From Nitrospirota bacterium (GTDB lineage Bacteria; Nitrospirota; 9FT-COMBO-42-15; HDB-SIOI813): DNA of 64,000 nucleotides. Below, in pieces: positions 3,108 through 63,426 of the stretch. Made by a program: the position numbers and the translations under genes. Where the stretch lies: positions 63 through 64,062 of the forward strand of contig JACRGV010000009.1 in NCBI GenBank assembly GCA_016212215.1, given 5' to 3'. Every line of letters starts with the position of its first letter. Positions within the stretch are counted from its first letter, which is position 1. The notes below the pieces were generated by a model. The model was not told the DNA's origin. It did not search any database and saw nothing but the letters and a program-made list of their open reading frames with translations.

Positions 3108-4811
3108 AATAAGTTACTAATCATTGGCCTTGATGGCGGTACATTCGATTTAATAAAGCCCTGGGCAGGGAATGGGAAACTTCCCAATCTTTCGAGATTA
3201 TTAAATGAAGGCGTACATGCAAGGTTGAACAGCACTATCCCTCCGATGACATTTCCTGCATGGAATACATTTATGACAGGAAAGAATCCCGGGAAACATG
3301 GTGTTTATGATTTTACAGAGCGTAAACAGGGGAGCTATGAGGTACAGTTTGTAAATGGAGGGATGAGAAGAAGCAAGACCATCTGGCAGATTATGAATGA
3401 AGCAGGTAAGAATGTCGGTATAATGGCAGTACCTGCAACTTATCCGCCGGAAGAGGTCAAACATTTTATGATCAGCGGGTTTGATACTCCTGGTATGACA
3501 TCCCCTAAAGGCAAAGCCACATCAATGTATCCTCAGGAACTATTTGAGGAGTTAAACAAAGAGGTTGGGGAATATGTTGTTACATCAAATGTTCACGGAG
3601 ATATTGCAAAGGGTAACCTGGATATTGCAGAACAAAAAATCCTTGCAACAATTGAGAGAAAGGCGGCAAATGCCAAATATCTTTATAAGAAATATCAGCC
3701 CAACTGTTTCATGATTGTTTTTGGTGAGACAGATTTAGTGAGCCACAGTTTCTGGCATTTCTATGACCCTCGTTCTCCTCTTCATAATAAAGGTGAAGGT
3801 AGAAAATACAAGGATACTATACTTCATATTTATGAGAAGGTGGATGAAAAGATCGGCGAACTCTTATCCATGTCTTCAAAAGATACCGTGGTTATGATTA
3901 TGTCGGACCATGGATTTGGAGGGAGCGGGAATAAGGCAGTTTATCTTAACAATTGGCTGGCAGAAAATGGATTACTTGCTTTCAGGGATACGTCTTATTC
4001 ATCAATGAAAAATGACCTGCTTCAGGGGGTTAAACGTGCAGGGATAAAGTTCGTTCCGGCCAAATTAAAGGGGATATTGATGCGCAGTAACTCAGTAAAA
4101 TTTGTCAACAAGCTCGAATCCTCTTTAAGATTTTCACAAATAGAATGGTCCGGGACAATGGCATTTTCAGAAGAGACCCCTCATTTTCCTTCAATATGGG
4201 TAAATGTGAGAGGAAGGGACCCTGAAGGGATAGTAGCGCCGGGTGCAGAATATGAGAAAGTAAGAGATGAGATTATTCAGAAACTTTATAGTTTTAAAGA
4301 TCCGTATACATGTCAGCCTGTAGTCAATAAGGCATATCGCAGGGAAGAGGTTTATAAAGGGAATTATACTCAAAAGTCCCCGGATATTGTGATTGATTGG
4401 GCACTGACTGAAGGCTATACCTATCTCAGTGAACAGAGTAAGCCGAACAAGTTCAATGAATCTATAAGAAAACTAAGCCCATCGGAAGTTCATACTGCGA
4501 GGTTCGGGAGCCACCGTCAGCATGGCATCTTTATACTGCACGGAGGTCCGATTAAAAGAAACTTAGAGATTACAAATGCTAATATTGCAGACCTTGCCCC
4601 CACTGCCCTCTATTTACTTGACATCCCTGTGCCTGATGATATGGATGGGGTTGTCCTGAAGGATGCCATCAAAAAGGATTATATAACAGATCATCCATTG
4701 AAAATTGTAAACAACACCGGCGATTCTAACATTGAAAAAGATCCTGCAGGATATTCACAGGATGAAGAAGATGCAGTCAGGGATCGTCTTGCTGATATGG
4801 GTTACATATAA
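3105..4811 (+). CDS. Alkaline-phosphatase-superfamily protein, paralog of 1287-3017
   Basis: Same conserved blocks (LIIGLDGGTFDLI, PPMTFPAWNTFMTGKNPGKHG, MSDHGFG). The ORF track starts at GTG 3084 inside a repeat unit. ATG 3105 (MNKLLIIGLDGG) aligns with the paralog's N-terminus. Confidence 0.65.
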   Translation: MNKLLIIGLDGGTFDLIKPWAGNGKLPNLSRLLNEGVHARLNSTIPPMTFPAWNTFMTGKNPGKHGVYDFTERKQGSYEVQFVNGGMRRSKTIWQIMNEAGKNVGIMAVPATYPPEEVKHFMISGFDTPGMTSPKGKATSMYPQELFEELNKEVGEYVVTSNVHGDIAKGNLDIAEQKILATIERKAANAKYLYKKYQPNCFMIVFGETDLVSHSFWHFYDPRSPLHNKGEGRKYKDTILHIYEKVDEKIGELLSMSSKDTVVMIMSDHGFGGSGNKAVYLNNWLAENGLLAFRDTSYSSMKNDLLQGVKRAGIKFVPAKLKGILMRSNSVKFVNKLESSLRFSQIEWSGTMAFSEETPHFPSIWVNVRGRDPEGIVAPGAEYEKVRDEIIQKLYSFKDPYTCQPVVNKAYRREEVYKGNYTQKSPDIVIDWALTEGYTYLSEQSKPNKFNESIRKLSPSEVHTARFGSHRQHGIFILHGGPIKRNLEITNANIADLAPTALYLLDIPVPDDMDGVVLKDAIKKDYITDHPLKIVNNTGDSNIEKDPAGYSQDEEDAVRDRLADMGYI

Positions 4812-4916: not shown

Positions 4917-6269
4917 ATGAAGAATGGTCTCTCAGTTGCTATGGTTGTTGCATCCCCTTTTCCTGCCAATCATGGTACCCCCGGCAGTATAAAAGAGATG
5001 GTGGATGCCCTAATGAAACTTGGACATAATATCCATCTTGTCACATATCATCAGGGTGAAAAGGATATTAATATTGATGGAGTGAATATCCACCGGATAC
5101 CATTTCCAGGATTCAGCAGAAATATAAAGGTAGGGCCTACTTTTGATAAACCATTCCTTGATATTTTACTTGCCCATAAACTTTTACAGGTGGTCAGGAG
5201 CGAGAATATAGACCTGGTACATGCACATAATTATGAAGGACTTCTTTCTGCTGTTGTTGCAAGACCGTTTATTAAGAAACCGGTAATTTACCATGCTATT
5301 AATACAATGAGCGATGAATTGCCGTCCTACAATTTTATCCGCCCTAAGGTACTGGCTGTGGCACTTGCAAGGATGCTTGATAAAAGTGTTCCGGTCAGGG
5401 CAGATCATCTGATTGCTATCTCTTCAGAGTTAAAGGATTTCCTGGTTAACGAAGGTGTGCGTAAAGAGAAGATTAGCAGAATACCGCTCGGTGTTAACGG
5501 CGGAATATTCCTTAGGGGTAACAGACAGCAGATCAGAGATATGTACGGCATCGGCAGCAGGCCTCTCGTACTCTATACAGGACTGCTTAACTCATTTCAA
5601 CGGCTTGATTACCTTGTGATTGCTATGAAACGTGTTGTTTCTCAGATTCCTGACGCTCTCCTGATGATTGTCCCGAATCTTCTTAATGGAAAGGAGTTGC
5701 AGGTACTAAACGATTTAATAGACCGGAACGGACTGGGAAAAAATGTTATAATTACTGACCGTGTCTCTTTCACAGAAATACCTGATTATCTTGCAGCAGC
5801 AGATGTTACAGCATTGCCGAGGCCTAATACACCCGGTTTTCCTGTAAAATTGCTGAATTATATGGCCGCAGGAAAAGCCATTGTATGTTTTACCGGTTCA
5901 GCAAAAGGATTAATAAACAGGGAGAGCGCCATAGTAGTAGATGACCACGATAGTAATGCTTTTGGAGAAGGGATTACTATCCTGCTGAAGGATAATGAAC
6001 TTCGCGAGTATGTAGCACGGGGGGCGAGAGCACTCTTTTTCCGTGAATTTGACTGGAAAAATGTGGCAAAAAAGATTGACGGATTATATAATTATGTACT
6101 CACAAAGAAGGTTCCTGTAGACTTAAAAGATGCTATAAGCTATTATGACAGGAGAGATAATGGGCATAATGGTGAATCCAACATTACCCAAAATAGAAAC
6201 GGCGACAGGAGAAAGTATCTTAAAAATATTGATTTTCCTGAACGGAGGAGGATAATACTTTTTGATTAA
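4917..6269 (+). CDS. Glycosyltransferase family 4 (group 1) with C-terminal extension
   Basis: GT4-like fold blocks (VASPFPANHGTPGS ... E(x7)E-like region 'NSFQRLDYL...PRPNTPGFPVKLLNYMAAGKAIV'). About 70 aa extension beyond the typical GT4 length. Confidence 0.65.
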   Translation: MKNGLSVAMVVASPFPANHGTPGSIKEMVDALMKLGHNIHLVTYHQGEKDINIDGVNIHRIPFPGFSRNIKVGPTFDKPFLDILLAHKLLQVVRSENIDLVHAHNYEGLLSAVVARPFIKKPVIYHAINTMSDELPSYNFIRPKVLAVALARMLDKSVPVRADHLIAISSELKDFLVNEGVRKEKISRIPLGVNGGIFLRGNRQQIRDMYGIGSRPLVLYTGLLNSFQRLDYLVIAMKRVVSQIPDALLMIVPNLLNGKELQVLNDLIDRNGLGKNVIITDRVSFTEIPDYLAAADVTALPRPNTPGFPVKLLNYMAAGKAIVCFTGSAKGLINRESAIVVDDHDSNAFGEGITILLKDNELREYVARGARALFFREFDWKNVAKKIDGLYNYVLTKKVPVDLKDAISYYDRRDNGHNGESNITQNRNGDRRKYLKNIDFPERRRIILFD

Positions 6270-8760: not shown

Positions 8761-11304
8761 ATGGTTAGGAATTTATTAAACATTCTTGGGTTGATATTAA
8801 TATACTATCCTTTCAGATGGATTTGTTCCTGCCTTTCATTTAGTAAAGCAATATATTTCGCTGAAGTTATTGCGATGATTCACTCAAAACTCAATGTTAC
8901 CCCTGTACCGCAGATTAAAAAGGGTATTAATAGTATTATGGAGAACAGATGGTCTTCAAAACAGGTTAATGATGTTATTATTGCAAATCTGACTACAAGG
9001 TATATTCATCTTGTAGAGTTATTTCTTGCCGGCAGGGTTTCCGCAGATAATATAGATGTCAGGGTCAGTTCTATATGCGGACTTGAGCATCTTGATTCTG
9101 CCATAAAACTTAATAAGGGAGTAATTTTATTGAGTTTTCACTTAGGGTCCTACGGGATACCGCTTGCGGCCTTAGGATATAAAGGATATTCTTTATTTCA
9201 ACATATAGTAGATTGGCAAGACACTCCATTAATAACACCGGATATACTCAAATATAAAGACAACACATTTTATCAACAGAATGCACCTTCTGATTTTTAT
9301 CCGGGAAGATACATCGGGACTATTGAGAAGTCAATCCTTGGAATAAAAAAACGGTGTCATTCTTTTTTGCCTGTTAAGATGCTGTATCATAAAGAGAAAC
9401 ATTATGCAAGGAATCTATTGAGGTGTTTAGGAGAAAACAGCATACTTTCAATTATGGGTGATGGATCAAAGGGGTCGCGTTTTACTAATGTAGATTTTCT
9501 GGGAAAGAAGATTTCATTTTCAACAGGGCCTGCTTCTCTTGCGGCTATAACCGGCGCTGCAATACTGCCTGTATTTACAATCAGAGAGAATGATAGGAGA
9601 CACAAGGTAATAATTCACTCACCTATATTTGTGAAAAGGAAGGATTCCGATTCAATAGAAGATGCTGTAGCCGCGTATACAGCACTACTTGAAAATTATG
9701 TAATGGAGTATCCAGGTCACTGGTATACATGGGATAGATTAACTGTAACGAGAGATTCAGCCGGCGAGGAGGTAATTCAGCCTGTTGTAAAGAAGAGTTT
9801 TTCTGATGAGACTATTTTGAGTCAGAATCCACCTATGAAACAGTCTCAACGTATAGCAAAGAATATTGTAACAGGAGTACTTGGTGAGGCATTAGGTGCA
9901 GTTCTACATCTCCTGACCATTGTGTCCATTGCCCGTTATCTTGGGACCTCCGGTTTTGGAGAATATGCATTTGTAATGGCATTTGTCGGTATTTTTGAGA
10001 TTGCTGCCGACCTCGGCCTGCGCAATATTTTTATCAGAGAGATTGCTGTTGATAAGGAGAATGTATCCCGTCATCTCGGGATTATGAAATTGATGATATG
10101 GGCCTTTTCTATTTTATCTTTTTTATTGATTGTCATTATAATAAACATTGTATCTTCGTCACATGAAATTATTATATCCAGTTATATTGCAGGGCTTGCA
10201 GCCCTTTCTACATTTCATGCGGTGGGATACGGGGCTGTATGTCGAGCCTTTGAAGACATGGAATACAATGCCGTTGGTTTTACCTTACATAAAACCGTGC
10301 TCTTTGGATTGATCTCTCTTGCAATATGGTTTCATACCAATATGTCGCAGATGTTCTTCGCCTATCTAGGGGCAAATATATTTTTATGGATTTATTATTA
10401 TTTGGTTGTAAGGTTTAAGTATGTAAAACCACGGATGATCTGGGATCCGAGAGGCGCATGGTACATGTTCAGGGAGGCTGTCCCGCTTGGAATTGCCGAA
10501 ATTATCCGTAAGGTAACATGGCAGGTAGATACTATCATTCTTTCGATGATTAGTACCTCGACAGCGGTGGGCCTATTCAATGCTGCTTACAAGGTAATAC
10601 AGGCGATTAATCTGATCCCGATTACTCTTGCCCATCCTCTATTTCCAATGTTTGCACGTCTGGGAAAAGAATCTCCCAGGAAGCTATTTGAGGCACATGA
10701 CAAGGCTATAAAGATGTTATTCTCAATAGGGTTACCTATGGCAGTCATACTCACTGTTTATGCTGATTTGACGATAGCCCTTCTGTTCGGCCCTAAGTTC
10801 CATGACGCAGTACCTGCACTTCAGCTTATGAGTTGGGCACTGTTCTTTCTATTCCCGACATCGTTGTATGTTTATCTTTTTACCTCGATTGGAAAACAGA
10901 AATTATTTACCGTTGCCTCTTTCTCATGCCTCGGCATTAACATTCTTATAGATTTCCTGCTGATTCCATATATGAGCTTCATCGGGGCCTGTTTCGGTAC
11001 GCTATTGTCAGAGGCGACACTATGCGGTGTTGGTGTTTATTTTATTCATAAAATGGGTCATAAAGTATCATGGTCCGGTATTGCAGGAAAACCTTTTATT
11101 GCAGGATTGTTATTAGTTGTTTTACTGTATTTCACAAGACACCTTCCGTTAATATGGCAGGTCTCAGGTTTTGTATCCGGAATGGGTGTATATGTATACG
11201 CGCTGTTTATTATGAATGTATTTTCAAAGAATGAGATAGATATGATTATCGAGGGTGCCTCTTTCGGTCTAAAGAAGGTCAGGACGTCTTCCATAATAAA
11301 ATAA
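8761..11304 (+). CDS. Fusion ORF: LpxL/HtrB-like lipid acyltransferase (N) + Wzx/MOP-family polysaccharide flippase (C)
   Basis: N-terminal ~350 aa has the lysophospholipid/lipid A acyltransferase 'HLGS' block region. From internal ATG 9835 (MKQSQRIAKNIVTGVLGEALG...LGTSGFGEY) onward it is a 12-14 TM MOP flippase. No stop between domains; either a true fusion or the flippase initiates at 9835. Confidence 0.6.
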   Translation: MVRNLLNILGLILIYYPFRWICSCLSFSKAIYFAEVIAMIHSKLNVTPVPQIKKGINSIMENRWSSKQVNDVIIANLTTRYIHLVELFLAGRVSADNIDVRVSSICGLEHLDSAIKLNKGVILLSFHLGSYGIPLAALGYKGYSLFQHIVDWQDTPLITPDILKYKDNTFYQQNAPSDFYPGRYIGTIEKSILGIKKRCHSFLPVKMLYHKEKHYARNLLRCLGENSILSIMGDGSKGSRFTNVDFLGKKISFSTGPASLAAITGAAILPVFTIRENDRRHKVIIHSPIFVKRKDSDSIEDAVAAYTALLENYVMEYPGHWYTWDRLTVTRDSAGEEVIQPVVKKSFSDETILSQNPPMKQSQRIAKNIVTGVLGEALGAVLHLLTIVSIARYLGTSGFGEYAFVMAFVGIFEIAADLGLRNIFIREIAVDKENVSRHLGIMKLMIWAFSILSFLLIVIIINIVSSSHEIIISSYIAGLAALSTFHAVGYGAVCRAFEDMEYNAVGFTLHKTVLFGLISLAIWFHTNMSQMFFAYLGANIFLWIYYYLVVRFKYVKPRMIWDPRGAWYMFREAVPLGIAEIIRKVTWQVDTIILSMISTSTAVGLFNAAYKVIQAINLIPITLAHPLFPMFARLGKESPRKLFEAHDKAIKMLFSIGLPMAVILTVYADLTIALLFGPKFHDAVPALQLMSWALFFLFPTSLYVYLFTSIGKQKLFTVASFSCLGINILIDFLLIPYMSFIGACFGTLLSEATLCGVGVYFIHKMGHKVSWSGIAGKPFIAGLLLVVLLYFTRHLPLIWQVSGFVSGMGVYVYALFIMNVFSKNEIDMIIEGASFGLKKVRTSSIIK

Positions 11305-11307
11305 ATA

Positions 11308-12588
11308 ATGAAAAAAGCGGTTTTGATATTTGCAGTAATTTGCTTAATGGGGGCAAGCATACTCTCATGGTTCACCCCCCCGCTGATAAGTCCTGTTAAT
11401 GGCTTTGATATTTCTCTTAGTCCGGTAGTATCTTTAAATACACATTCCTCCGTAATATCATCCTTTAGTATCCTGTTAATTATAATGGCTATAGGTGTTA
11501 TCCTGAGTTTATGGTCATCATACTCGTATATAGTTTTTCATATTTCCATGGGGTGTATTTTCACAACACTGTATTTTATACTCAAGGCGGCCTTCCTTGA
11601 CCATGTTTTTCTTGAGGATGTATTGTATTTACATCAACAGCATCTCAATATGATAAAATTTTCATCTATTCTTCCCGTTAATGTAGGGTTTGAACCCACG
11701 CTTGCCCCGCGTCTTTTGATTGATGGTCTTTTTACAAGAATATATGTTTTATTTTATTTCCTTTCTTATGGATGGTATCTGACCTTCATTACAGGGATTA
11801 TGCTCTTATTTTATTGTTTCCGGAGTGTTAAAAATCCTGATAAAGGTAAAAGGGGTTTAAGGGCAGTTACACGTACAGTAATAATCTGGGGCTTTGCATT
11901 TATAGGAATAGTTGCTTATAGTGTAGCTCCTTATATTATCTCAGAGTATTATGTTATCAATGGTGATAAATATATGGAGGCAGGCAATCCTGTTATAGCA
12001 GAAAAGGCATATAGGAAGATACTTGATAGAAACGATATTTTTGATACGGACAGTGAATTCCAAAATCGTCTCGGTGTTATTGCCTTCTCCTTAGGCAAAA
12101 GAAATAATACTGAGTATCATTTCTACATGGGAAACCTGTATTCAGAACAGAGAAGGTATGATATGGCAGAATTTGAATATAAAAAGGCATTAGAATTGAG
12201 CAGCGGTGATATGCATAAACTTTTGATCCGGTCTCTGGAAGAACTATACAATGTAGCCGGTCTGATAGAGTACACCAGGGGAAACAGCAGTTATGGCGTA
12301 CAAATGTGGGAGAAGGCCCAGCAGTTAAATCCTTCAGGGATTCAGACCTATTATTATTTATCAAAGGCGTACTATGATTCAGGAAATTATCAGAAGGCAA
12401 TGAGCTATGGAGAAAAGTTTCTTTCACTTTCCGGAAACAATATCCTGAATTCCAATATTAATGCAACAATAGGTGATTGTTATTATAAACTGGGAGATCC
12501 TGTCAAGGGACGCACCTATTATGAGAAGGCAAAGGCTCTGGATTTATTCGGGAACTACAGGATATTGAAAAGTCTTGGGGGAACGTAA
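11308..12588 (+). CDS. Polytopic membrane protein with C-terminal TPR repeats
   Basis: Several hydrophobic helices followed by TPR-like 34-aa repeats (YHFYMGNLYSEQRRYDMAEFEYKKALEL ... YYYLSKAYYDSGNYQKAMSYGEKFL). Confidence 0.5.
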   Translation: MKKAVLIFAVICLMGASILSWFTPPLISPVNGFDISLSPVVSLNTHSSVISSFSILLIIMAIGVILSLWSSYSYIVFHISMGCIFTTLYFILKAAFLDHVFLEDVLYLHQQHLNMIKFSSILPVNVGFEPTLAPRLLIDGLFTRIYVLFYFLSYGWYLTFITGIMLLFYCFRSVKNPDKGKRGLRAVTRTVIIWGFAFIGIVAYSVAPYIISEYYVINGDKYMEAGNPVIAEKAYRKILDRNDIFDTDSEFQNRLGVIAFSLGKRNNTEYHFYMGNLYSEQRRYDMAEFEYKKALELSSGDMHKLLIRSLEELYNVAGLIEYTRGNSSYGVQMWEKAQQLNPSGIQTYYYLSKAYYDSGNYQKAMSYGEKFLSLSGNNILNSNINATIGDCYYKLGDPVKGRTYYEKAKALDLFGNYRILKSLGGT

Positions 12589-12599
12589 GTTATTTACGA

Positions 12600-15500
12600 A
12601 TGAGACATCTTAGAACAGCATTATTTATAGTTATAATATTCGGAGTTGTTTCCGGTTATTTTGTTTGGAAGACTTTTTTTGCAATTCCTCCCAGGCTTTA
12701 TCCACAGATATTTAATAAGGCAGTTTGGATTTCATCACCTTCACAACAGCCTGTGGCATATTTCAGAAAGGTATTATTTATACCTGAAAAAATTAAAGAG
12801 GGATGGATTAAGATAAGTGCCCCGGATAAATTTATTCTTTATATCAACGGCCGGGTAGTCGGTAAGGAGACTTTTCCTTCTGTTAATGCTGCAGGTATTT
12901 ACGATATCGGCGGAAGTTTGCAGCACGGCAAAAATGTCATTGCAGTATTCGTATACAGGATGAGTTCCGGCAGTGCGACTGACATTGCAATGGAAGGAAA
13001 TTACACAGATGTTTCAGGCCATCAGCATGCCTTTTCCTCTGATAAATCATGGCGCGTTTCAAATCAGGAATCTTATGCATCTTCCGGTACAAATATATCT
13101 GCCTGGTATGAACAGGATTTTGATGACACTAACTGGAAATATGCTTCAGAGATAAGCCCTGCCCAAGGTTATGATAATGGGTTTCTTACTACCAATCCGG
13201 CAGTTTTCACAAGACCATTCCGTGGTAATATTATATGGCACCCCGATGCCCCTTCCTCTACAATATTATTCAAAAAGGACATCATAATCTCAAGAGAGCC
13301 TCTCAGGGAGGTGTGGGTCCGCATCTACTCGGGTTTGTCTTATACGCTTACAGTAAACGGATTCCGTCTGGATGGAGTTGCATTTATTACTCCCATGGTA
13401 GATATGTTGAAGATTACTCCATTGATACATAATGGTAATAATGTTATTACGCTCGAAGTATCCGGAGAAGGCAATACTCAGGGCATAGCTGTTGATTGTA
13501 TAGTGGAGATGGCAGATGGGAAGATTATAAGTCTTGCATCTGACCGTTCATGGATGGCAGGCAGTTATGCCTATATTTCAGGTGAAGGGAAAAGGGATAT
13601 TATCTGGAAACCTGCTATCACAGTAGTTTCAGGAACAGCATCTATCTCAACTGCCCAGATACAGAAGCGGATACTCGGACCGATAAATCTGCCTCAGGGA
13701 TATTATACATACAGATTTATGAGGATGACAGCGGTTATATTTCTTAACACCGTGTTGTTAATTCTTGCATGGCTTGTACTTTCTGTTATAAGAAAGAAGG
13801 TACTCATCATTGATACATCGCTGATTGAGCATTTACAGATAACTTCATATTTATTTCTCCCATCACTGCTCTTTTTCGGAATAATCTATCTCCTTTCTTT
13901 TGATATTAAGTATGAGCCTTCAGTTATATTTAATCCATGGGCGTTTTATGTATCCGGCGGCATATTTGTTTTTCTTTTTTTATTATCATTTTTGAGGCTA
14001 AAGCATTATGCCTTGAAAGATTCTACAGGTTTTTCTTCTTATTCAGAAATATTACAGAAGAAGTATGCTGTCTTCCTTATACTTCTCATAATACTCTGCC
14101 TCACAGGATTTCTTATAAGACTTCAATCACTCGGGTCAAGGTCTTTCAGTCATGATGAAGTAGCTATGGTGCGATTTGCACAGGGGATTCTTGAACATGG
14201 TTATTCATCTAAGATGCTGGGAGAACTTGAAAAGCCGCTCACTACCTACGAGGCCGTGCCGTTTCCAATAGCCTTTTCTATAAAGATGTTCGGAGACACT
14301 GAAACCGCTGCAAGAGTTCCTGCTGTTATCTTTGGTACAGTAACGATACTCCTTGTGGGTTTGTTTGCAGGGCGTTTATTCGGATATGCTGTAGGGCTGT
14401 ATGCAGCTATTCTTTATACCTTCTCACCGCTTGCCATAGCGTGGGCACAGGATTGTTATTTTCCCCAGCAGGTACAGATGTTCACCCTCCTCACAGTTTA
14501 TCTGTTTTACATCTATCTTGAGAGATATGATAAACAACCACGGTATGCCTATTATATTGCAATTTCATTCCTGCTGACATATCTTAGCTGGGAGGTTTCA
14601 GGCTTTCTCCTGCCTGCCCTCCTGATTGCAGGAATCCTATACAAAGGTAAGGATTTATCCTGGCTGAAAAACAGGCATATATGGCTTGCTGTGGGTATAG
14701 TGGTTGCCGGTGTGTTTCTACAGACAGCCAGAAGGACGTATTATCAAATCCCATATATCGTTGTTGGAATAGGCACCTCTGACGTAACCACCCCTTTACC
14801 GGTTTTTTTGTATCCTATGTATGACCCGTTTTTTTATGTAACAAACTTCCTCCTTCAGGAGAACCACGTTATTTTCACTTTATTGCTCGTTTGTGGAATA
14901 ATATTTCTGAGAAAATATAAAGGACTACGCTACCTCTATGCAATTATTATAATTATACTTCTTGAGCTGGCAAATCTACTGCCTTATTATACTTCACGAT
15001 ACATCTACTTCAGCCAGCCTTTTTTGATAATCATTGCCGCTTGTGTTTCAATTTTAAGTTTTTCATGGATGGCAGAGAAGATTAAAGGACTGCGGCTGCC
15101 AATCCTGTCTCCGGTTATATGGGGTACATGCTCTGTATTTCTGGTTGTTGTCTTTATCTCTTCCAACAGCTTATTTCTGAAACTCTACCGTCTTTCTTAT
15201 GACCCTACTCAGCCGGCTTTTCACACGCGGTCCGGTGTTATTGATTATGACTACAGGGATGTCGGTGCTTTCATAAAAAGTAATTTACAGAAAGGAGATA
15301 TTGTTATTGCAGTTATGTCACATACCATTGAGTACTATTCAGACATTACACCTGATTATTATATACAGAGTTATACAGACAGGCAGGTCTTTTACGACAT
15401 CGGAAGATCAGGAAATCCATCCCCTTATTATCTTGACAGGTATGTTGGACGTCCGGTAATAAGGAGTGTATCTGATCTTAAAAATGTTTTTAACAATAAT

Positions 15501-15638
15501 CGTCGTGTATGGATTGCCGCTGTAAACTATCGCACATTTGTTGCTTTTGATGATAAGGAGATGTTAGATTATATTCAATTAAACAGTAAGCCGGTTTACC
15601 GGGGTTATAATGCAGCAGTATATCTTTGGGAAAGATAG
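12600..15638 (+). CDS. Large membrane glycosyltransferase, ArnT/PMT (GT39/GT83)-like core with N-terminal periplasmic jelly-roll-like domain
   Basis: The central multi-TM region (…RSFSHDEVAMVRFAQGILEHGY…ETAARVPAVIFGTVTILLVGLFAGRLFGYAVGLYAAILYTFSPLAIAWAQDCYF) resembles the phospholipid-carrier-dependent GT fold. The last 103 bp is duplicated at 17110-17212. Confidence 0.5.
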   Translation: MRHLRTALFIVIIFGVVSGYFVWKTFFAIPPRLYPQIFNKAVWISSPSQQPVAYFRKVLFIPEKIKEGWIKISAPDKFILYINGRVVGKETFPSVNAAGIYDIGGSLQHGKNVIAVFVYRMSSGSATDIAMEGNYTDVSGHQHAFSSDKSWRVSNQESYASSGTNISAWYEQDFDDTNWKYASEISPAQGYDNGFLTTNPAVFTRPFRGNIIWHPDAPSSTILFKKDIIISREPLREVWVRIYSGLSYTLTVNGFRLDGVAFITPMVDMLKITPLIHNGNNVITLEVSGEGNTQGIAVDCIVEMADGKIISLASDRSWMAGSYAYISGEGKRDIIWKPAITVVSGTASISTAQIQKRILGPINLPQGYYTYRFMRMTAVIFLNTVLLILAWLVLSVIRKKVLIIDTSLIEHLQITSYLFLPSLLFFGIIYLLSFDIKYEPSVIFNPWAFYVSGGIFVFLFLLSFLRLKHYALKDSTGFSSYSEILQKKYAVFLILLIILCLTGFLIRLQSLGSRSFSHDEVAMVRFAQGILEHGYSSKMLGELEKPLTTYEAVPFPIAFSIKMFGDTETAARVPAVIFGTVTILLVGLFAGRLFGYAVGLYAAILYTFSPLAIAWAQDCYFPQQVQMFTLLTVYLFYIYLERYDKQPRYAYYIAISFLLTYLSWEVSGFLLPALLIAGILYKGKDLSWLKNRHIWLAVGIVVAGVFLQTARRTYYQIPYIVVGIGTSDVTTPLPVFLYPMYDPFFYVTNFLLQENHVIFTLLLVCGIIFLRKYKGLRYLYAIIIIILLELANLLPYYTSRYIYFSQPFLIIIAACVSILSFSWMAEKIKGLRLPILSPVIWGTCSVFLVVVFISSNSLFLKLYRLSYDPTQPAFHTRSGVIDYDYRDVGAFIKSNLQKGDIVIAVMSHTIEYYSDITPDYYIQSYTDRQVFYDIGRSGNPSPYYLDRYVGRPVIRSVSDLKNVFNNNRRVWIAAVNYRTFVAFDDKEMLDYIQLNSKPVYRGYNAAVYLWER
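15536..15638. repeat. Direct repeat copy A (3' end of gene 12600-15638), left flank of ATPase insertion
   Basis: 103 bp, ~88% identical to 17110-17212. In frame, encodes the C-terminus of the host protein. Confidence 0.85.
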
Positions 15639-17109
15639 AAAGGGAAATTAACAACCATAAATACGTCCACCTTACTTCAAATAATCTTTCATGTCTTCCA
15701 GACTCAATCCCAGCCATTTGACTTTGTAGCCTGAATATATATTGAGCAAACCTCCGGCCTTTGTCTTTAAGGCATTAAGGTTTATCTTTCCTCTGTCGAG
15801 CTTGATGTCGGCCATAGTGATTTCCTTTTTCAAATCGTTGATTGCAAGAAGATCAATTTCATTCTGATTTCCTTTTTCCCAGTACGAACCGATCACATTA
15901 TAGTTTCCTGTTTCGGCAAAAATCTGATGAAAAAATCTTTCGAGAATACGTCCTGAATAACTCGAATAATCCCTGTTTATGATTTCCTTAATATAAGAAT
16001 AATTTTCTGTTTCAGCAGCGGATAGGTTTCGGAAAATGAACCGGAACCAGAAGTTAAGGAAGTTGTCTGTTATTTTATATTTTTGAAGACGTGAACCCGG
16101 TTTGGCGCCTACCGGCTTATGCCTTGAGATTAGTGCATAGTCATTCTCAAGTCTTGCTAAATAGGCGCCTGCATGTATCTCTAAAACAGATTCAATCTCT
16201 GTCCTTGCTGTCTTGCCGATAGATATAAGCTCGAGGATAGAAAAATACGTTCCATATTCTTTCCCGAACTCTTCTATAAGCAGGTTTTTCCCCTCGTTTA
16301 TAAAGGGAGAATTCGGTGTGAGCATAAAATTAAGTATATCTTTGTAAGATAAAGCATCATTCGATGTCAATATATCCAGATACTTAGGCATTCCGCCGGT
16401 AAGTACGTAACAATCAAAAAGCGACCGCATATCAGATGCCCTGTGATCTGATAATACTCTATAGGTATCTTTTATGGTAAATGGTTTAAGGAAAAGTATC
16501 CTGTCCGCCCTCCCGAATAAAGGCTCTTTTGATTCTTCAAAAATCTTATGCATTAACGAATAAACAGAGCCTATACAGATGAGATTCATTTTACATTTTG
16601 ATTTATTCAAATCCCATAGACGCTGAATCTCTGAATATGCTGCTGAATTTACATTGTAGAATTCCTGAAATTCGTCAATAATCAGGATGAACCGCTCTTT
16701 TTTTGAAAGGTCAAGAAGAAGGGCAAAGACATCCTTAAAAAATTTAATATCTCCAATGACAGGCAGTGGAAAATGTTTTTTTATCTCCTCAATATATTCC
16801 ATACAAAGCAGATGCTCTGACTTCCTGGAGACAAACAGGTAAATAAACTTATGCTTACCGGCAAATTCCAGTGCAAGCATTGTTTTACCGACACGCCGAC
16901 GCCCTGTAATCACAGTCATACGTGCGGTATCTTTTGACTGATTGTAAAGCCTGTTAAGTTCATGGAGTTCCTGTTTGCGATTATAAAACTTCATGGTTCA
17001 TATTCCCATATAATATATATATCGTTACTCTGGCGTAACTCTGGTTACGGTAATAAATATTACGATATATTGAAAAAAGTTTCAATACTCAAGTTTATTA
17101 CTATCTTAT
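15639..17109. mobile_element. Putative single-gene insertion carrying a DUF234-type AAA ATPase, flanked by a 103-bp direct duplication of the host-gene 3' end
   Basis: Bounded by repeats 15536-15638 and 17110-17212. No transposase or integrase is present. The ATPase gene sits antisense, convergent with the host gene. Confidence 0.45.
15672..16994 (-). CDS. AAA+ ATPase (Arch_ATPase/DUF234 family) with C-terminal PD-(D/E)xK-like motif
   Basis: Walker A GRRRVGKT and Walker B LIIDEF. C-terminal 'EIDLLAI...ADIKLD' matches a D...(D/E)xK nuclease-like signature. Paralog of 61484-62929. Confidence 0.75.
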   Translation of the reverse strand: MKFYNRKQELHELNRLYNQSKDTARMTVITGRRRVGKTMLALEFAGKHKFIYLFVSRKSEHLLCMEYIEEIKKHFPLPVIGDIKFFKDVFALLLDLSKKERFILIIDEFQEFYNVNSAAYSEIQRLWDLNKSKCKMNLICIGSVYSLMHKIFEESKEPLFGRADRILFLKPFTIKDTYRVLSDHRASDMRSLFDCYVLTGGMPKYLDILTSNDALSYKDILNFMLTPNSPFINEGKNLLIEEFGKEYGTYFSILELISIGKTARTEIESVLEIHAGAYLARLENDYALISRHKPVGAKPGSRLQKYKITDNFLNFWFRFIFRNLSAAETENYSYIKEIINRDYSSYSGRILERFFHQIFAETGNYNVIGSYWEKGNQNEIDLLAINDLKKEITMADIKLDRGKINLNALKTKAGGLLNIYSGYKVKWLGLSLEDMKDYLK

Positions 17110-17212
17110 ATTTGTTGCTTTAGATGATAAATAGATGTTAGATTATATTGAACTATAGAGTAACCCTGTTTACCAGGGTTATAATGCAGCAGTATATCTT
17201 TGGGAAAGATAG
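17110..17212. repeat. Direct repeat copy B (degenerate duplicate of gene 12600-15638 3' end)
   Basis: Aligns base-for-base with 15536-15638 with ~12 mismatches. Contains in-frame stops (taaatag), so it is non-coding. Confidence 0.85.
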
Positions 17213-17221
17213 GATGATTAC

Positions 17222-18328
17222 ATGACAACAAAAAAAATAGCGGTTTTAATAGTTCTTCTTATTGCAATAATTTTAAGTACAGAATTCATTTCAACAGGAA
17301 AGGCACTATCTGTCCAGCCGGCCCCTGCGACTGACCTGAAAATAGCGGGAGATGATATATCCGGGATATGGGCTTTTTTTATGCTTGACATGAAGGCTGA
17401 ATCCCTTCAATTACTGAATAATGATGATATAGATAATATGTTGCAGGTGAAGCATCCGTATGTTAAAGGGATTGCACCCAGATTTGTCTGGTCTACACTT
17501 AACCCCGCCCCTGGTGAATATAATTGGACGCCTGTTGATAAGGTTATTGAAAGGGCAAGTGCGTATAATAAAAAAGTTGTAATAAGGATTATCGGCGGAG
17601 GCAGGTCTGAGTGGACGCCTGGTTGGCTCTGGCTAAAAACAAAATATGTAGATCACCTTTGTATAACGAAACAAGCCGAATGTAGGTTACCCATAATTTG
17701 GGATACTGAATATCTCTCGGCATGGACTACCTTTGTTAAGGCATTAGGTTCACGGTACGATTCCAATCCGCGTGTGCAACGTGTTGCCATTACCAACGGG
17801 TCCGGCGGGGAGCTATATTATCTACGCGGCGACCTTATGACAAATGATCAAATAAACCAGGTGGTTAATTCCGGTTTAGGTGATAATTTCGTTCAGACAT
17901 GGAATAATATTTTAGATAATTATGCAGTATCATTTCCAACAAAGCCGTTGTTTATGGACTTGGCACCTACGATCAAAGATATTCCAAATATGAAGGGTGA
18001 CGATAAAGAAGAAGTTATTGCAAATTACGCTATATCAAAGTTCGGTCATAGACTTTATCTTCAACAGGATGGACTACACGAAAATACAGATACTTCAGGG
18101 ACTTTTATTAGCCATGCAATTATGAAAAACCATGCTGTAAACGGTAATATTATAGGATTTCAAACATTGGCACCGGATGCGCATGGAAATTTAAGGATGG
18201 CATTTGAAAAGGCACTATCCTATCCTATCCATTATATTGAGGTTTTTACTAAGGACCTTCAGGACCCTGATCAGCAGGATGCAATCCGATTTCTGTATGA
18301 AAGACTTAAAGCTATTCCTCCTCATTGA
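17222..18328 (+). CDS. Secreted TIM-barrel-like protein, possible glycoside hydrolase
   Basis: Signal/TM anchor, then 'HPYVKGIAPRFVWSTLNPAPGEYNW...VVIRI' reminiscent of a GH-type (beta/alpha)8 N-terminal strand. Weak assignment. Confidence 0.4.
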   Translation: MTTKKIAVLIVLLIAIILSTEFISTGKALSVQPAPATDLKIAGDDISGIWAFFMLDMKAESLQLLNNDDIDNMLQVKHPYVKGIAPRFVWSTLNPAPGEYNWTPVDKVIERASAYNKKVVIRIIGGGRSEWTPGWLWLKTKYVDHLCITKQAECRLPIIWDTEYLSAWTTFVKALGSRYDSNPRVQRVAITNGSGGELYYLRGDLMTNDQINQVVNSGLGDNFVQTWNNILDNYAVSFPTKPLFMDLAPTIKDIPNMKGDDKEEVIANYAISKFGHRLYLQQDGLHENTDTSGTFISHAIMKNHAVNGNIIGFQTLAPDAHGNLRMAFEKALSYPIHYIEVFTKDLQDPDQQDAIRFLYERLKAIPPH

Positions 18329-35629: not shown

Positions 35630-35713
35630 TAGGGATGAGCATAGAGCAGAAGTAAGAAGCAAGAAATTAGAAGTAAGAAGATTGTACTGATAATAAACAC
35701 TAAGGGGGAATGA

Positions 35714-36742: not shown

Positions 36743-37195
36743 GCCCCCCCTCCCCTTAATCCCCTCCCGCAAGGGGAGGGGAGACATAAGAGAGATTCCT
36801 TACCCTGGGGGGAGCGGGTACATAGAATATGCTCAAGGGAGAGGGTACTAAGTTTATCCCCCCTCCCTTGACGGGAGGGGGTTAGGGGGAGGGTGAGCTA
36901 TGGTGATTTTCGGATGAACTCCCATGAGCGGGGCGATCACAAAGGGCAATGAAAACCCCACCCTCACCCTAACCCTCTCCCTGAGGGAGAGGGGGCTACG
37001 TTGATTCCCTCCCCTTCAAGGGGAGGGGTAGGGTGGGGATGGGGTTGATTTTCGGATGAACTCACATGAACCAGGGTTCACGAATGGCAATGAAAATCAA
37101 CGGGACAAGAATGTCCCGCCTATCCTCATAGATATGGATAGGCGGGGTTTTCTTACCCCGCCGGAAGGATTTTCGAGTGAGTTCAATCAGGAGGA
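36743..37195. repeat. Composite BIME-like cluster (at least 5 units in alternating orientation) + three-hairpin 75-bp module
   Basis: Alternating 'ccctcccc..ggggaggg' and inverse 'caccctcaccctaaccctctccctgagggagaggg' units joined by 'catga(a/g)cNNNgNtcacaaagg.catgaaaa' linker hairpins. Ends with 'cgggacaagaatgtcccgcctatcc…ggataggcggggttttcttaccccgcc'. Confidence 0.8.
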
Positions 37196-40135: not shown

Positions 40136-40560
40136 ATCGTGATTAGTGAATGGTGAATAGTAAAGGCCCCCTCACCCGGAGCCTCTCCCTGAGGGGGAGG
40201 GGGCTACGTTGATTCCCTCCCCTTCAAGGGGAGGGGTAGGGTGGGGATGGGGTTGATTTTCGGATGAACTGTCATGAAACGGAGGTTTCACAAAGGAGGA
40301 TGAAAACCACCCCCCCAATCCCCCCCTTGTTAAGGGGGGGAAAGTTCCTTTGGTGCTCAATGGCCAACGGCAATCCCCCCCTTTGTTCAAGGGGGGGCAT
40401 GGGGGGGTCATTTTCGGATGAACCCACATGAACCAGGGTTCACAAAGGGACATGAAAATCAGCGGGACAAGAAAGTCCCGCCTATCCTCGTAGAGATGGA
40501 TAGGCGGGGTTTTCTTACCCCGCCGGAAGGGATTTTCGGATGAATGCAAATGAGGTTAAA
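40126..40560. repeat. Composite BIME-like cluster incl. 3' 'cagtgaat' module, variant C-tract hairpins and three-hairpin module
   Basis: Starts at leuA's last codons ('aaagcagtgaatcgtgattagtgaatggtgaatag'). Contains 'cccccctt gttaa gggggg' variant hairpins. Ends with the 75-bp module before leuC. Confidence 0.8.
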
Positions 40561-41875: not shown

Positions 41876-42063
41876 ATTTCCCTCCCCCTTGAGGGGGGAG
41901 GGGCAGGGTGGGGGTGAGCTATGGAGATAATCAGATGAACTCCCATGAAACAGGGTTTTACAAAGGGGCATGAAAATCAGCGGGACAAGAATGTCCCGCC
42001 TATCCTCAATTTACACATGGATAGGCGGGGTTTTCTTACCCCGCCGGAGGAATTTTTCGAATG
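41876..42063. repeat. BIME-like cluster + three-hairpin module ending in leuD start codon
   Basis: 'ccctcccccttgaggggggaggggcagggtgggggtgagctatggagataatcagatgaactcccatgaaacagggttttacaaaggggcatgaaaatcagcgggacaag…ttttcgaATG'. Confidence 0.8.
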
Positions 42064-42621
42064 AAAGATATTATCAGGGGTAAAGCCTACGTTCTATGCA
42101 ATGACATTGATACTGACCAGATTATTCCGGCACAGCATCTTGTGTACAGCCTGAGTGACCATGAAGAGAGGAAGATGTACGGACGGTTTGCATTATCAAG
42201 CGTCCCGGATTCTCTGGCCGGTCTGCCTGATGGACATATCAGGTTTGTTAAAGATGATACCTTTAAATCAGAGTTTAATATAATTATAGCCGGTAAGAAT
42301 TTCGGATGCGGCTCATCGCGTGAACATGCACCGATTGCTTTGAACATAGCAGGGGTCGAGGCAGTTGTTGCTGAATCTTATGCAAGGATTCATTACAGAA
42401 ACGTTGTTGACGGCGGTTTCTTTATCCCCTTTGAAATAAATCAGCATATTTATAAGGAAGCAAAAACAGGGGATGACATTGAAATTGATGTAAAGAAAGG
42501 CATCCTTAAAAACCTTTCACAGGACAAGGAATATAAACTTCAGCCATTGGGTGATGTAGAAGCAATACTGCGGGCCGGTAGTATATTTGAGTATGCCAGG
42601 CAAGAGGGGATGCTGAAGTAA
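42061..42621 (+). CDS. leuD: 3-isopropylmalate dehydratase small subunit
   Basis: Aconitase swivel-domain blocks (IIAGKNFGCGSSREHAP). Its ATG lies inside the terminal 'ttttcgaATGaaa' module of the upstream repeat. Confidence 0.85.
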   Translation: MKDIIRGKAYVLCNDIDTDQIIPAQHLVYSLSDHEERKMYGRFALSSVPDSLAGLPDGHIRFVKDDTFKSEFNIIIAGKNFGCGSSREHAPIALNIAGVEAVVAESYARIHYRNVVDGGFFIPFEINQHIYKEAKTGDDIEIDVKKGILKNLSQDKEYKLQPLGDVEAILRAGSIFEYARQEGMLK

Positions 42622-48853: not shown

Positions 48854-48972
48854 GTAGACCCCGCCTTATCTTCAAAATATCAATAAAACCAAAAAAATAT
48901 TGTAAAGAAACACCCACTAAAAAATAAAATAAATTAAAGTCTTTATTTGTGGCATTCGTCTTATTCGTGAGA

Positions 48973-49045
48973 AAACCAGCGGGACAAGAAAGTCCCGCCT
49001 ATCCTAAGTAGAAATGGATAGGCGGGGTTTTCTTACCCCGCCGTA
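48973..49045. repeat. Three-hairpin 75-bp module (copy 4)
   Basis: 'cagcgggacaagaaagtcccgcctatcctaagtagaaatggataggcggggttttcttaccccgcc'. Confidence 0.8.
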
Positions 49046-49073
49046 GGTAACCCATTATATTCGGAGGTGATTT

Positions 49074-59186: not shown

Positions 59187-59361
59187 TCTTGCCTCTTTCA
59201 ATAAGAAAATATATAATCCTTCCACTTTGAAAAACCATTTCTCACACAAAGACACAAAGGGACTGAAAATTAAATTATCCTTCGACAGGCCTGTCCTGAG
59301 CGAAGCCGAAGGGCTCAGGATGACATCCATGGTGTCATGGTGAACCTGTCGAACCATGACA

Positions 59362-59447
59362 AGAAAATCAGCGGGACAAGAATGTCCCGCCTATCCTCAT
59401 AGATATGGATAGGCGGGGTTTTCTTACCCCGCCGGAGGGGGCGGATG
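59362..59447. repeat. Three-hairpin 75-bp module (copy 5) supplying the TonB receptor ATG
   Basis: 'cagcgggacaagaatgtcccgcctatcctcatagatatggataggcggggttttcttaccccgccggagggggcggATGaac'. Confidence 0.8.
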
Positions 59448-61364: not shown

Positions 61365-61369
61365 TTTCT
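61320..61369. repeat. Direct repeat copy A (3' end of TonB-dependent receptor gene)
   Basis: 50 bp, 48/50 identical to 63287-63336. Confidence 0.85.
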
Positions 61370-61483
61370 TACATTGTAATTATGTGGAGTTATGGGGGGA
61401 TTTTCTGTTTTAGGCTGATCATTATGCTTCTTTAAATCTGCTCTCGCTTTGACCTCATCCCATTCAAATGTGATTTATACAAC

Positions 61484-62929: not shown

Positions 62930-63044
62930 GATATAAAGACCTCCTGTTGCTATTATACGATATATTATAAAATACGATTAATTAAATCAAGAGTTATTTA
63001 TGATTTTGTCTTGACCCGGGGGATTCTGGGGACATCCATGATAA

Positions 63045-63225
63045 GGGTCTGTCATGAAATAACTTGTGCATTTAGGCGCTCAGATTTCGGTCAGGTTTGA
63101 GTGCGACCGATTGAGCAAACCCGAAGGCGTAGTTGAATCTACGCTGAGGGGTTGCGATTGATGAGCACACAAAGATGGCCGGAAGATGAGATGCATAAAT
63201 GTATAGGTTATTTTATGACAGACCC
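63045..63225. repeat. 181-bp element bounded by 18-bp inverted repeats (gggtctgtcatgaaataa / ttattttatgacagaccc)
   Basis: Near-perfect terminal inverted repeat. Internal hairpin gcgtagttgaatctacgc. Could be a MITE or a structured 5' leader. Confidence 0.5.
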
Positions 63226-63286: not shown

Positions 63287-63336
63287 GAAATAGGAACCCG
63301 TGTGCCGGCGCATATTACTTACCGTATGTAATTTCT
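63287..63336. repeat. Direct repeat copy B (duplicate of TonB receptor 3' end)
   Basis: 48/50 identical to 61320-61369, including a non-functional copy of the receptor's stop codon context. Confidence 0.85.
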
Positions 63337-63426
63337 GACGTTTGCTTACCAATTTTACTTCTGTTATATTTAGCCGTACGTTTAACCTTTCCTTTTTTTT
63401 CATTTAGCATCAACACGGGGTGATTT

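Follow-up and report, generated by a model that had tools for sequence, protein, structure and literature searches.

A DUF234-type ATPase gene cassette at the 3' end of a Nitrospirota glycosyltransferase gene: probable insertion with long target duplication

Introduction

How does a single gene accompanied by no transposase or integrase come to lie between two copies of the end of its neighbour? The question is raised by a 64-kb stretch of DNA from a Nitrospirota metagenome-assembled genome (MAG), referred to here as the window, in which a gene for a DUF234-type ATPase follows, in antisense orientation, a gene for a membrane glycosyltransferase (GT)-like protein and is bounded on both sides by that gene's 3' end. 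A sequence-only reading of the window had described this arrangement as the insertion of an ATPase gene with a direct duplication of its target. We here delimit the inserted unit, compare it with related loci, and weigh the ways in which it may have arrived.

The spread of defence genes that lack a recombinase is a long-standing question. One mode of entry, termed insertion with long target duplication, was described by Nobusato et al. 2000 (Gene 259:99) and then by Furuta, Abe & Kobayashi 2010 (NAR 38:2428, PMC2853133). The latter authors found that restriction-modification (RM) units of every type, as well as a solitary mcrA and an orphan methyltransferase, had been inserted without a mobility gene and were flanked by direct repeats of 30 to >400 bp that give a single match to the empty site. 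The repeats often cover a translation start or stop and the target gene survives, and some of the insertions lie in operon-like clusters. Their criteria were a direct repeat of >30 bp that is unique in the genome rather than dispersed, an insert of <20 kb, no mobility genes, and a single match to the empty site; the additional demand for restriction (R) and modification (M) homologs served to filter their search and is not one that the mechanism would impose. Double-strand breakage was suggested as a common factor (PMC2853133), the mechanism having remained unsolved since 2000, and the phenomenon has so far been documented only for RM genes.

Results

A single-gene insert between two copies of a gene end

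The repeat that bounds the ATPase gene consists of copy A, the functional last 37 codons of the GT gene together with its TAG stop, and copy B, which lies beyond the ATPase gene and stops 9 nt short of the next start codon, the ATG at 17222 (Table 1). In a three-way alignment that included the empty site described below, the two copies were identical at 101 of 115 positions, and the duplication measured approximately 113–115 nt. The sequence-only reading had given it as 103 bp: the stretches in question are indeed repeated, with 90% identity by blastn, but the homology begins 10 nt earlier. As that reading also held, copy A is the in-frame end and TAG of the GT open reading frame (ORF), copy B contains in-frame TAG stops (17132–17134 and 17156–17158) close to the next gene, and no ORF of note other than that of the ATPase lies between the copies. 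Mismatches between the copies are confined to the 5' two-thirds, the last 37 nt being identical. The cassette lies antisense within a tightly packed + strand operon, the last gene of which is thereby cut off from its upstream partners.

Given that a near-copy of about 100 nt of a gene 3' end situated ~1.5 kb downstream superficially resembles the variable and template repeats (VR/TR) of a diversity-generating retroelement, and that dispersed repeats are abundant elsewhere in the window, we considered whether the repeat belongs to either class. The mismatches are not adenine-specific, however, but of all kinds (T>A, GG>AT, C>G, T>C, A>T, G>C and others), and no reverse transcriptase was found among the window's ORFs of ≥200 aa. 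A 36-nt probe from the repeat gave exactly two matches in the 64-kb window, with 0 expected, and the repeat is unrelated to the GC-rich palindromic family described below. A retroelement repeat pair and a dispersed repeat, the latter named by the sequence-only reading as the finding that would count against it, were therefore both rejected and are extremely improbable.

Boundaries of the cassette and its occurrence at other loci

Searches by blastn against four contigs with differing contexts (L005, L089, L090 and L091) each returned one block, of 92–93% nucleotide identity, running from 17099 to 15663 (15669 in L090). The shared unit, cassette-1, thus comprises 1437 bp: a leader, the ATPase ORF and ~9 nt past its stop. 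It fills the space between the repeats except for 22 nt, and the whole insert of 1459 nt contains a single ORF. The 22-nt filler, which lies outside both the repeat and the shared cassette, was probably co-inserted from an earlier location. The ends of the cassette are ragged, in that L005 and L089 share an extra 30–45 nt on the promoter side and 21 nt past the stop, and L090 shares less. No terminal inverted repeats were found at the ends (15640/17100), neither leader nor insert gave an Rfam match, and GC content is level throughout the first insertion region.

The same unit, at ~93% DNA identity, was present at at least four other loci in related populations, and close homologs of the ATPase (88–96% identical) occupied at least six differing neighbourhoods (Table 1). 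We found no case of the ATPase at the same locus without the duplication, an arrangement that the sequence-only reading had singled out as evidence against insertion; relatives of 93–96% identity all lie at other loci. At 50–72% identity, the family extends through Nitrospirota, Desulfobacterota, Chloroflexota, Planctomycetota, Omnitrophota, Verrucomicrobiota, Bacteroidota, Chlamydiota, Spirochaetota and Gammaproteobacteria. Members were found on 141 plasmids, with essentially no carriage by phages. This distribution is that expected of a horizontally transferred gene. Insertions recur in or beside loci for surface polysaccharides, GTs or PEP-CTERM proteins (8761–18328 in the window; L001/L002; L025; L005).

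The window contains no integrase, transposase or reverse transcriptase among ORFs of ≥200 aa and no tRNA genes in its 64 kb, and its surroundings are those of a core chromosome (ilv/leu genes, asd, queA, pyruvate dehydrogenase, lipid synthesis). With no transposase, no terminal inverted repeats and ragged ends, an insertion sequence or DNA transposon was rejected. An integrase-mediated element was rejected in that none of the window's ORFs of ≥200 aa encodes a recombinase and tRNA genes are lacking, the latter also disposing of a tRNA as the insertion target. An integron gene cassette was set aside given that the unit has its own conserved promoter, that the repeat is a host coding 3' end rather than a multi-copy attC, and that there is no intI. 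The earlier statement that the locus does not fit ordinary insertion sequences or integrative elements was thus borne out. A related possibility is that the locus is the remnant of a larger integrative element, its attL and attR having been formed by a site-specific recombinase that targets the GT 3' end and all but the ATPase having been deleted; such elements often integrate at the 3' end of a gene and bring a replacement for it, giving rise to long direct repeats (PMC2853133). Yet, in addition to the lack of integrase and tRNA genes, all but 22 nt between the repeats is taken up by a 1437-bp block that exists as such at other loci, and the second insertion described below would have required the same improbable, precise decay. 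We regard a decayed element of this kind as very improbable.

An empty site in a related genome

No relatives of the protein encoded by the downstream gene, which we refer to as glycoside hydrolase (GH)-like, were found in species-representative genomes, and the empty site was reached instead through a GT ortholog (P0122, 72% amino acid identity) on a 7.3-kb Logan contig, L006. Gene order in L006 is as in the window (Polysacc_synt, TPR, GT, GH-like); a spacer of 43 nt separates the stop of the GT gene from the ATG of the GH-like one, and the ATPase is absent. Both this contig and the cassettes of 93–96% identity come from sequencing runs in the range SRR223878xx–SRR223882xx. The two genes are thus adjacent, as the sequence-only reading had anticipated for an uninterrupted locus. 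Copy B and the host 3' end are both homologous to the 3' end of the L006 ortholog, with 89 of 115 positions identical in each case. Given that both copies match this one gene end, the segment was ancestrally single-copy and was duplicated upon arrival of the ATPase.

The spacer in L006 (6815–6868) is made up of the last ~11 nt of the gene (GGGAAAAGTAG), repeated three to four times in tandem, which suggests that this gene end is prone to slippage.

Age and fate of the repeat

With L006 as outgroup, the 14 differences between the copies were assigned to copy B in six cases, which include both stops, and to copy A in six, with two being ambiguous. Five of the copy A changes fall within the gene and four of these are non-synonymous; copy B retains the ancestral residues I and Q at positions at which copy A is derived. 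All in-gene differences lie within the first 76 of 113 positions (P ~0.004 under uniform decay). This pattern of divergence indicates that the first insertion is not recent. Constraint on the tail is possible, given that in copy B the Shine-Dalgarno region of gene 17222 lies within it.

The equal divergence of the two copies also fits a Campbell-type re-integration, which we therefore retain as the main rival. A donor circle bearing the cassette and one copy of the GT 3' end, released in a related strain by recombination between flanking repeats already present there, would have entered by a single homologous crossover in the GT 3' end, regenerating the flanking repeats; the duplication would then have been inherited from an earlier primary event, and the copies would have differed from the outset by donor-recipient divergence. 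This would account for their equal distance from the outgroup, with ~5 mostly non-synonymous derived changes in copy A and ancestral I and Q in copy B. Furuta et al. have proposed a cycle of invasion, amplification via the repeats and release for RM units, and the ATPase family is plasmid-borne. Such a crossover nevertheless leaves the origin of the first duplication unexplained and complements a primary target duplication rather than replacing it. An identical 37-nt tail would also not be expected of two diverged alleles, and no other genome was found to carry the cassette at the GT locus as a donor would, the relatives of 93–96% identity lying elsewhere. On balance we consider that the repeat in the window is unlikely to have arisen in this manner.

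A second insertion in the same window

A control scan of neighbouring genes flagged a second DUF234-type ATPase gene in the window, at the 3' end of a gene for a TonB-dependent receptor, and thus at another gene end of the type at which the sequence-only reading had proposed to look for further cassettes. The second protein is only 28% identical to the first (PF01637, 74.4 bits; PF03008, 61.8 bits). The order of features is as at the first site: an intact host 3' end, a convergent ATPase gene, a leader, a displaced copy and the next host gene. Copies A2 and B2 are identical at 52 of 56 positions, and the repeat is present in strictly two copies in the window. The homology to the receptor 3' end extends, in weaker form, for ~30 nt upstream of B2, to ~63258, so that in both displaced copies the stop-proximal part is well preserved and the distal part has decayed. 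Cassette-2 (~61513–63001) was delimited with L092 and L093, which carry it at another locus with 89% nucleotide identity.

We rejected the segment 63045–63225 as part of cassette-2, given that it is absent from L092 and L093, has TAA/TAA flanks and recurs in L088, where it lies directly after the stop of the receptor ortholog (1950–1991). It is instead a nested element resembling a miniature inverted-repeat transposable element (MITE), with terminal inverted repeats GGGTCTGTCAT[G/A]AAATAAC. In L087, from a Nitrospira MAG, ~95-nt tandem repeats lie downstream of a TonB-receptor ortholog (1990–2290). A double-hairpin element of ~115 nt (CAGCGGGACAAGAAWGTCCCGCC ... GGATAGGCGGGGTTTTCTTACCCCGCC) without an Rfam match is present in five copies just upstream of genes that include the TonB receptor.

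Flanking repeats across the family

Flanking repeats were sought at 81 family loci by comparing the 800-nt stretches to the left and right of the ATPase gene, with matches in inverted orientation serving as the null and 177 neighbouring non-ATPase genes subjected to the same test as a control. Inverted matches reached a maximum of 13 nt, whereas direct matches of 22–205 nt were obtained at 11 of the 81 loci. Members of the family in other phyla are likewise bounded by clean two-copy duplications, which in L064 and L067 cover the start of a gene and of which a third was found in L024. Two weaker cases were found, of which that in L025 could be a paralogous fragment. The view that all flanking repeats in the family are target duplications was rejected, in that those in L080, L082, L085, L014 and L048 are multi-copy or low-complexity and intergenic. 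Among the control genes, 14 of 177 had flanking repeats, mostly dispersed ones. Gene-end duplication thus recurs in the DUF234 ATPase family, with an enrichment that is modest and does not allow it to be claimed as specific to the family.

The five loci with multi-copy repeats are gene arrays with repeated spacers of 22–205 nt, possibly attC-like or resembling repetitive extragenic palindromic (REP) sequences. The window itself, in an otherwise AT-rich genome, contains a GC-rich, REP-like family of intergenic palindromes, such as CCCCCTCCCTTGACGGGAGGGGGTTAGGGGGAGGGTGAGC, of which at least 15 copies lie among housekeeping genes in the region 33000–57100, as well as purine-rich tandem tracts (GAAGTAAGAAGTTAGAAG...) with a 14-nt period at 35635, 42615, 53057, 54271 and 56926.

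The leader and its conserved palindromes

The sequence-only reading had noted the AT-rich leader of the cassette but had overlooked that it contains a promoter of its own and highly conserved palindromes, a presumed operator. The promoter is sigma70-like (TTGAAA at 17085–17080, N17, TAATAT at 17062–17057), and two palindromes follow in a 15-nt register, GTAAT-N4-ATTAC (17063–17050) and GTAAC-N4-GTTAC (17048–17035). The consensus GTAAY-N4-RTTAC is found ≤150 nt upstream in 71 of 83 family members from >10 phyla, with two or more copies in 35, compared with a background of six matches in the remaining 1.25 Mb searched. The palindromes lie at fixed offsets from the ATG (~15–20 and ~30–35 nt) and coincide in part with the –10 box and, in many members, also with the ribosome-binding site. 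On this pattern they are probably an autoregulatory operator. By analogy with the controller proteins of RM systems, we infer that the winged helix of the ATPase protein would bind GTAAY-N4-RTTAC and repress its own gene.

Operator-like sites were not found in the insertion targets, apart from one with a single mismatch in copy B. The latter (GTAACCCTGTTTAC, 17160–17173) was gained through changes specific to copy B and may have been recruited to the regulatory region of the cassette or be a coincidence. In L003, the leader palindromes are present twice: once in the leader of the DUF234 ATPase gene (5935–5976) and once by themselves (TTTATCGTAATACTGGTAACCGTAACCACGGTTACGATAAAT, 4293–4334), downstream of a gene for an AAA_14-DUF4143 ATPase, where they may be what is left of a lost cassette.

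The ATPase-nuclease protein

The 440-aa protein matched PF01637 (ATPase_2) with 60 bits against a gathering score of 33.2 (E = 3.7e-16, residues 3–206) and PF03008 (DUF234) with 48.3 bits against 22.5 (E = 1.4e-12, residues 316–401). It also matched the PADLOC model PDC-S27 (PDLC04985) almost over its full length (E = 5.1e-43, residues 2–419 on profile positions 5–438 of 484), in keeping with the resemblance to a single-gene ATPase-nuclease defence or selfish module that the sequence-only reading had proposed. The Walker A (G31-R-R-R-x-G-K-T) and Walker B (D107-E-F-Q) motifs are invariant or nearly so in 80 homologs from >10 phyla, and the same holds for E352, N378-E-I-D381 and K398 of the nuclease-like C-terminus, which that reading had also pointed out, in 42–80 homologs.

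No homolog in the Protein Data Bank was found by phmmer, and structural neighbours were sought with an AlphaFold2 model (mean pLDDT, the predicted local distance difference test score, 87). The model comprises an AAA+ domain (1–230), a winged helix (~234–308) and an alpha-beta-beta-beta-alpha-beta core at 332–430 (helix 332–362, strands 367–373, 377–386 and 391–397, helix 406–419 and strand 424–430). The helix bears E352, and the second and third strands bear D381 and K398, respectively. As modelled, this arrangement of the C-terminal domain is that of a canonical PD-(D/E)xK fold, and the domain is a predicted nuclease; DUF234 has been listed as family 76 of the PD-(D/E)XK superfamily (Steczkiewicz et al. 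2012, PMC3424549). Foldseek ranked two archaeal PF01637 ATPases, 2QEN and 2FNA, highest, and Orc1/Cdc6, TnsC, MuB and STAND proteins next. The match to the TniB family in Pfam was below threshold (19.2 versus 22.4 bits).

These similarities bear on whether the protein moves its own gene by cutting the target, and perhaps also the ends of the cassette, with a wide stagger. It is the sole protein encoded by the insert, its nuclease residues are conserved, and its AAA+ domain resembles the target-selection ATPases TnsC and MuB as well as Orc/Cdc6. Two distantly related members lie in the window with the same architecture and orientation, and cassettes of ~93% identity are present at at least four loci. 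On the other hand, the cassette ends are ragged, with variable hitch-hiking sequence and no terminal repeats; the operator motif is located at one end only and the targets lack operator-like sites; most family loci have no flanking repeats, the enrichment over neighbours being weak; and unrelated RM genes have been reported with the same mode of insertion. Autonomous transposition is thus a distinctly improbable explanation of the locus.

Table 1 Features of the two insertion sites, other features of the window, and related loci. Positions are those of the window.
Feature	Position	Strand	Details
First host gene, 1012-aa membrane glycosyltransferase-like (PMT_2 / GT39-type)	12600–15638	+	Within polysaccharide operon 8761–18328 (+)
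Direct repeat copy A	15526–15640	+	Functional end of host gene
Junction filler, 22 nt	15641–15662		Four cassette copies end at 15663 (blastn)
Cassette-1, mobile, 1437 bp	15663–17099	-	Delimited by blastn against L005, L089, L090, L091
ATPase gene, AAA+ ATPase / winged helix / PD-(D/E)xK nuclease-like protein	15672–16994	-	PF01637 + PF03008 = COG1672; PADLOC PDC-S27
Cassette leader, ~105 nt	16995–17099	-	Promoter and tandem palindromes
Direct repeat copy B	17100–17214	+	Displaced, decaying copy of host gene 3' end
Downstream host gene, 368 aa	17222–18328	+	Weak GH42-like match; directly after glycosyltransferase gene in empty site
Second host gene, TonB-dependent receptor, 639 aa	59445–61364	+
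Repeat copy A2	61320–61375	+	Last 45 nt of receptor gene including TAA stop (61362–61364), plus 11 nt
Second DUF234-type ATPase gene, 481 aa	61484–62929	-	PF01637 + helix-turn-helix (HTH) + PF03008; convergent with receptor gene
Nested MITE-like element, 181 nt	63045–63225		Terminal inverted repeats; TAA/TAA flanks
Repeat copy B2	63287–63342	+	Next + strand gene from ~63428
Double-hairpin element, five copies	37069–37182, 40431–40544, 41949–42065, 48948–49062, 59340–59453
L001, L002 neighbourhood			Between HTH gene and Bac_transf gene, another polysaccharide cluster
L003, L004 neighbourhood			HEPN/nucleotidyltransferase and AAA_14-DUF4143 genes
L005 neighbourhood			PEP-CTERM protein
L089, L091 neighbourhood			Small membrane protein
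L090 neighbourhood			VapBC
L064 clean two-copy repeat			65 nt, 98%; start of Eco57I/MmeI-type (RM) methylase-like gene
L067 clean two-copy repeat			42 nt, 93%; start of purS-like gene
L024 clean two-copy repeat			145 nt, 88%
L025 two-copy repeat, weaker			41 nt, 85%; codons 4–17 of GT2 gene
L018 two-copy repeat, weaker			25 nt, 92%

Discussion

A single-gene cassette has been inserted in the end of the GT gene with duplication of its target; the boundaries of the unit are given by its copies at other loci, and a second member of the family has the same architecture in the same window. By comparison with the published cases, we infer that the event belongs to the class of insertions with long target duplication, and this overall picture is quite likely correct. 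Under such a mechanism, a linear cassette fragment would arrive by plasmid or transformation and be joined, by illegitimate recombination or end joining, to two breaks in the target, with a stagger that might range from tens to hundreds of bases and would here be ~113 nt. The point of entry, 113 nt upstream of the GT stop, would not be site-specific, and fill-in of the staggered breaks would yield the duplication of 113–115 nt. As the duplicated stretch extends as far as the stop codon, copy A leaves the host gene with an intact 3' end, and because the host gene is intact the event would have been retained by selection. The displaced copy B, non-coding and situated between the cassette promoter and the next host gene, would then decay. 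Ragged cassette ends and co-inserted filler fit an end-joined linear fragment. A primary target duplication would predict a pre-insertion junction of the form ...GATAG-GATGATTAC-ATG.

Several observations weigh against this account. The sole empty site comes from a fairly distant relative (72% amino acid identity), in which the spacer measures 43 nt as against 9 nt in the window; for the second insertion no empty site was obtained, with L088 ending 42 nt past the stop and L087 being too diverged. Copies A and B are equidistant from the outgroup (6 versus 5–6 derived changes), and a simple model in which the coding copy is conserved and the pseudo-copy decays would not yield this result. The identical 37-nt tail demands an extra assumption, either gene conversion or constraint. 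About 90% of family loci have no flanking repeat, and several of the positive loci have multi-copy intergenic repeats. Two-copy repeats accompany 7 of 82 ATPase genes and 3 of 176 neighbours in a loose count (Fisher p = 0.013), and 5 of 82 ATPase genes in a strict one (p = 0.11). Finally, the sequence is taken from an assembled MAG contig.

A bolder proposal is that the DUF234 protein is a minimal, single-protein mobility machine that makes variably staggered breaks, and thereby represents a new autonomous class of selfish nuclease gene. We think this quite unlikely; if it were true, the same logic would explain the movement of recombinase-less RM and other defence genes. Under the preferred explanation, insertion with long target duplication, what is added is that DUF234/COG1672 (PDC-S27), a very abundant and uncharacterised single-gene family, behaves at the window locus as RM genes have been found to do. 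The cassette may also offer a tractable model for the mechanism: the unit of 1.44 kb can be mapped to the base, there are recent copies of ~93% identity at at least four other loci, and two independent examples lie in one 64-kb stretch of core chromosome. Evidence based on mobility is thereby added for DUF234 ATPases as restriction-like selfish or defence genes, and the putative cross-phylum operator could be used to find and delimit such cassettes.

Known systems resemble the cassette in different respects. Tn7-type TnsA and TnsC, together with MuB, combine a related AAA+ fold with a restriction-endonuclease-like nuclease, whereas here there is no DDE transposase, no terminal repeat and no fixed short target duplication. 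With the controller (C) proteins of RM systems and their C-boxes, the cassette would share a palindromic operator over the promoter of a mobile nuclease gene and an HTH encoded in the same unit; a C protein is separate and small, whereas the HTH here is a domain of the nuclease-ATPase itself. The DUF234/COG1672 family, known as PDC-S27 and described as an abundant defence candidate without experimental validation (PMC12988326), has the same domain architecture, Walker motifs and nuclease-like C-terminus, and a patchy distribution among Bacteria and Archaea and on plasmids. A full-text literature search returned no paper describing DUF234 or PDC-S27 genes as discrete mobile cassettes, with flanking target duplications or with the GTAAY-N4-RTTAC leader.

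The closest parallel is to the insertions described by Furuta et al. The cassette differs from these in being a single AAA+/winged-helix/PD-(D/E)xK gene without a methyltransferase, and so lacks the R and M pair of their search; in its occurrence in an uncultured Nitrospirota and in phyla outside that work; and in having base-level boundaries given by several recent insertions together with a conserved, putative operator. In other respects the likeness is close. The target duplications exceed 30 bp (113–115 nt, and 56 nt in the second case), the insert is shorter than 20 kb and accompanied by no integrase or transposase, and the repeat aligns once to an empty site, that of the distant relative L006. 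The repeat extends over a stop codon and keeps the host gene whole, the target is an operon-like cluster, and the cargo is of a nuclease-containing, defence-like type. A long duplication without a transposase, which the sequence-only reading had regarded as unusual, is thus present, but RM genes provide a published precedent (PMC2853133), and the mode of insertion is of a kind already known. The locus extends a known and mechanistically unsolved form of gene mobility to a DUF234 cassette.

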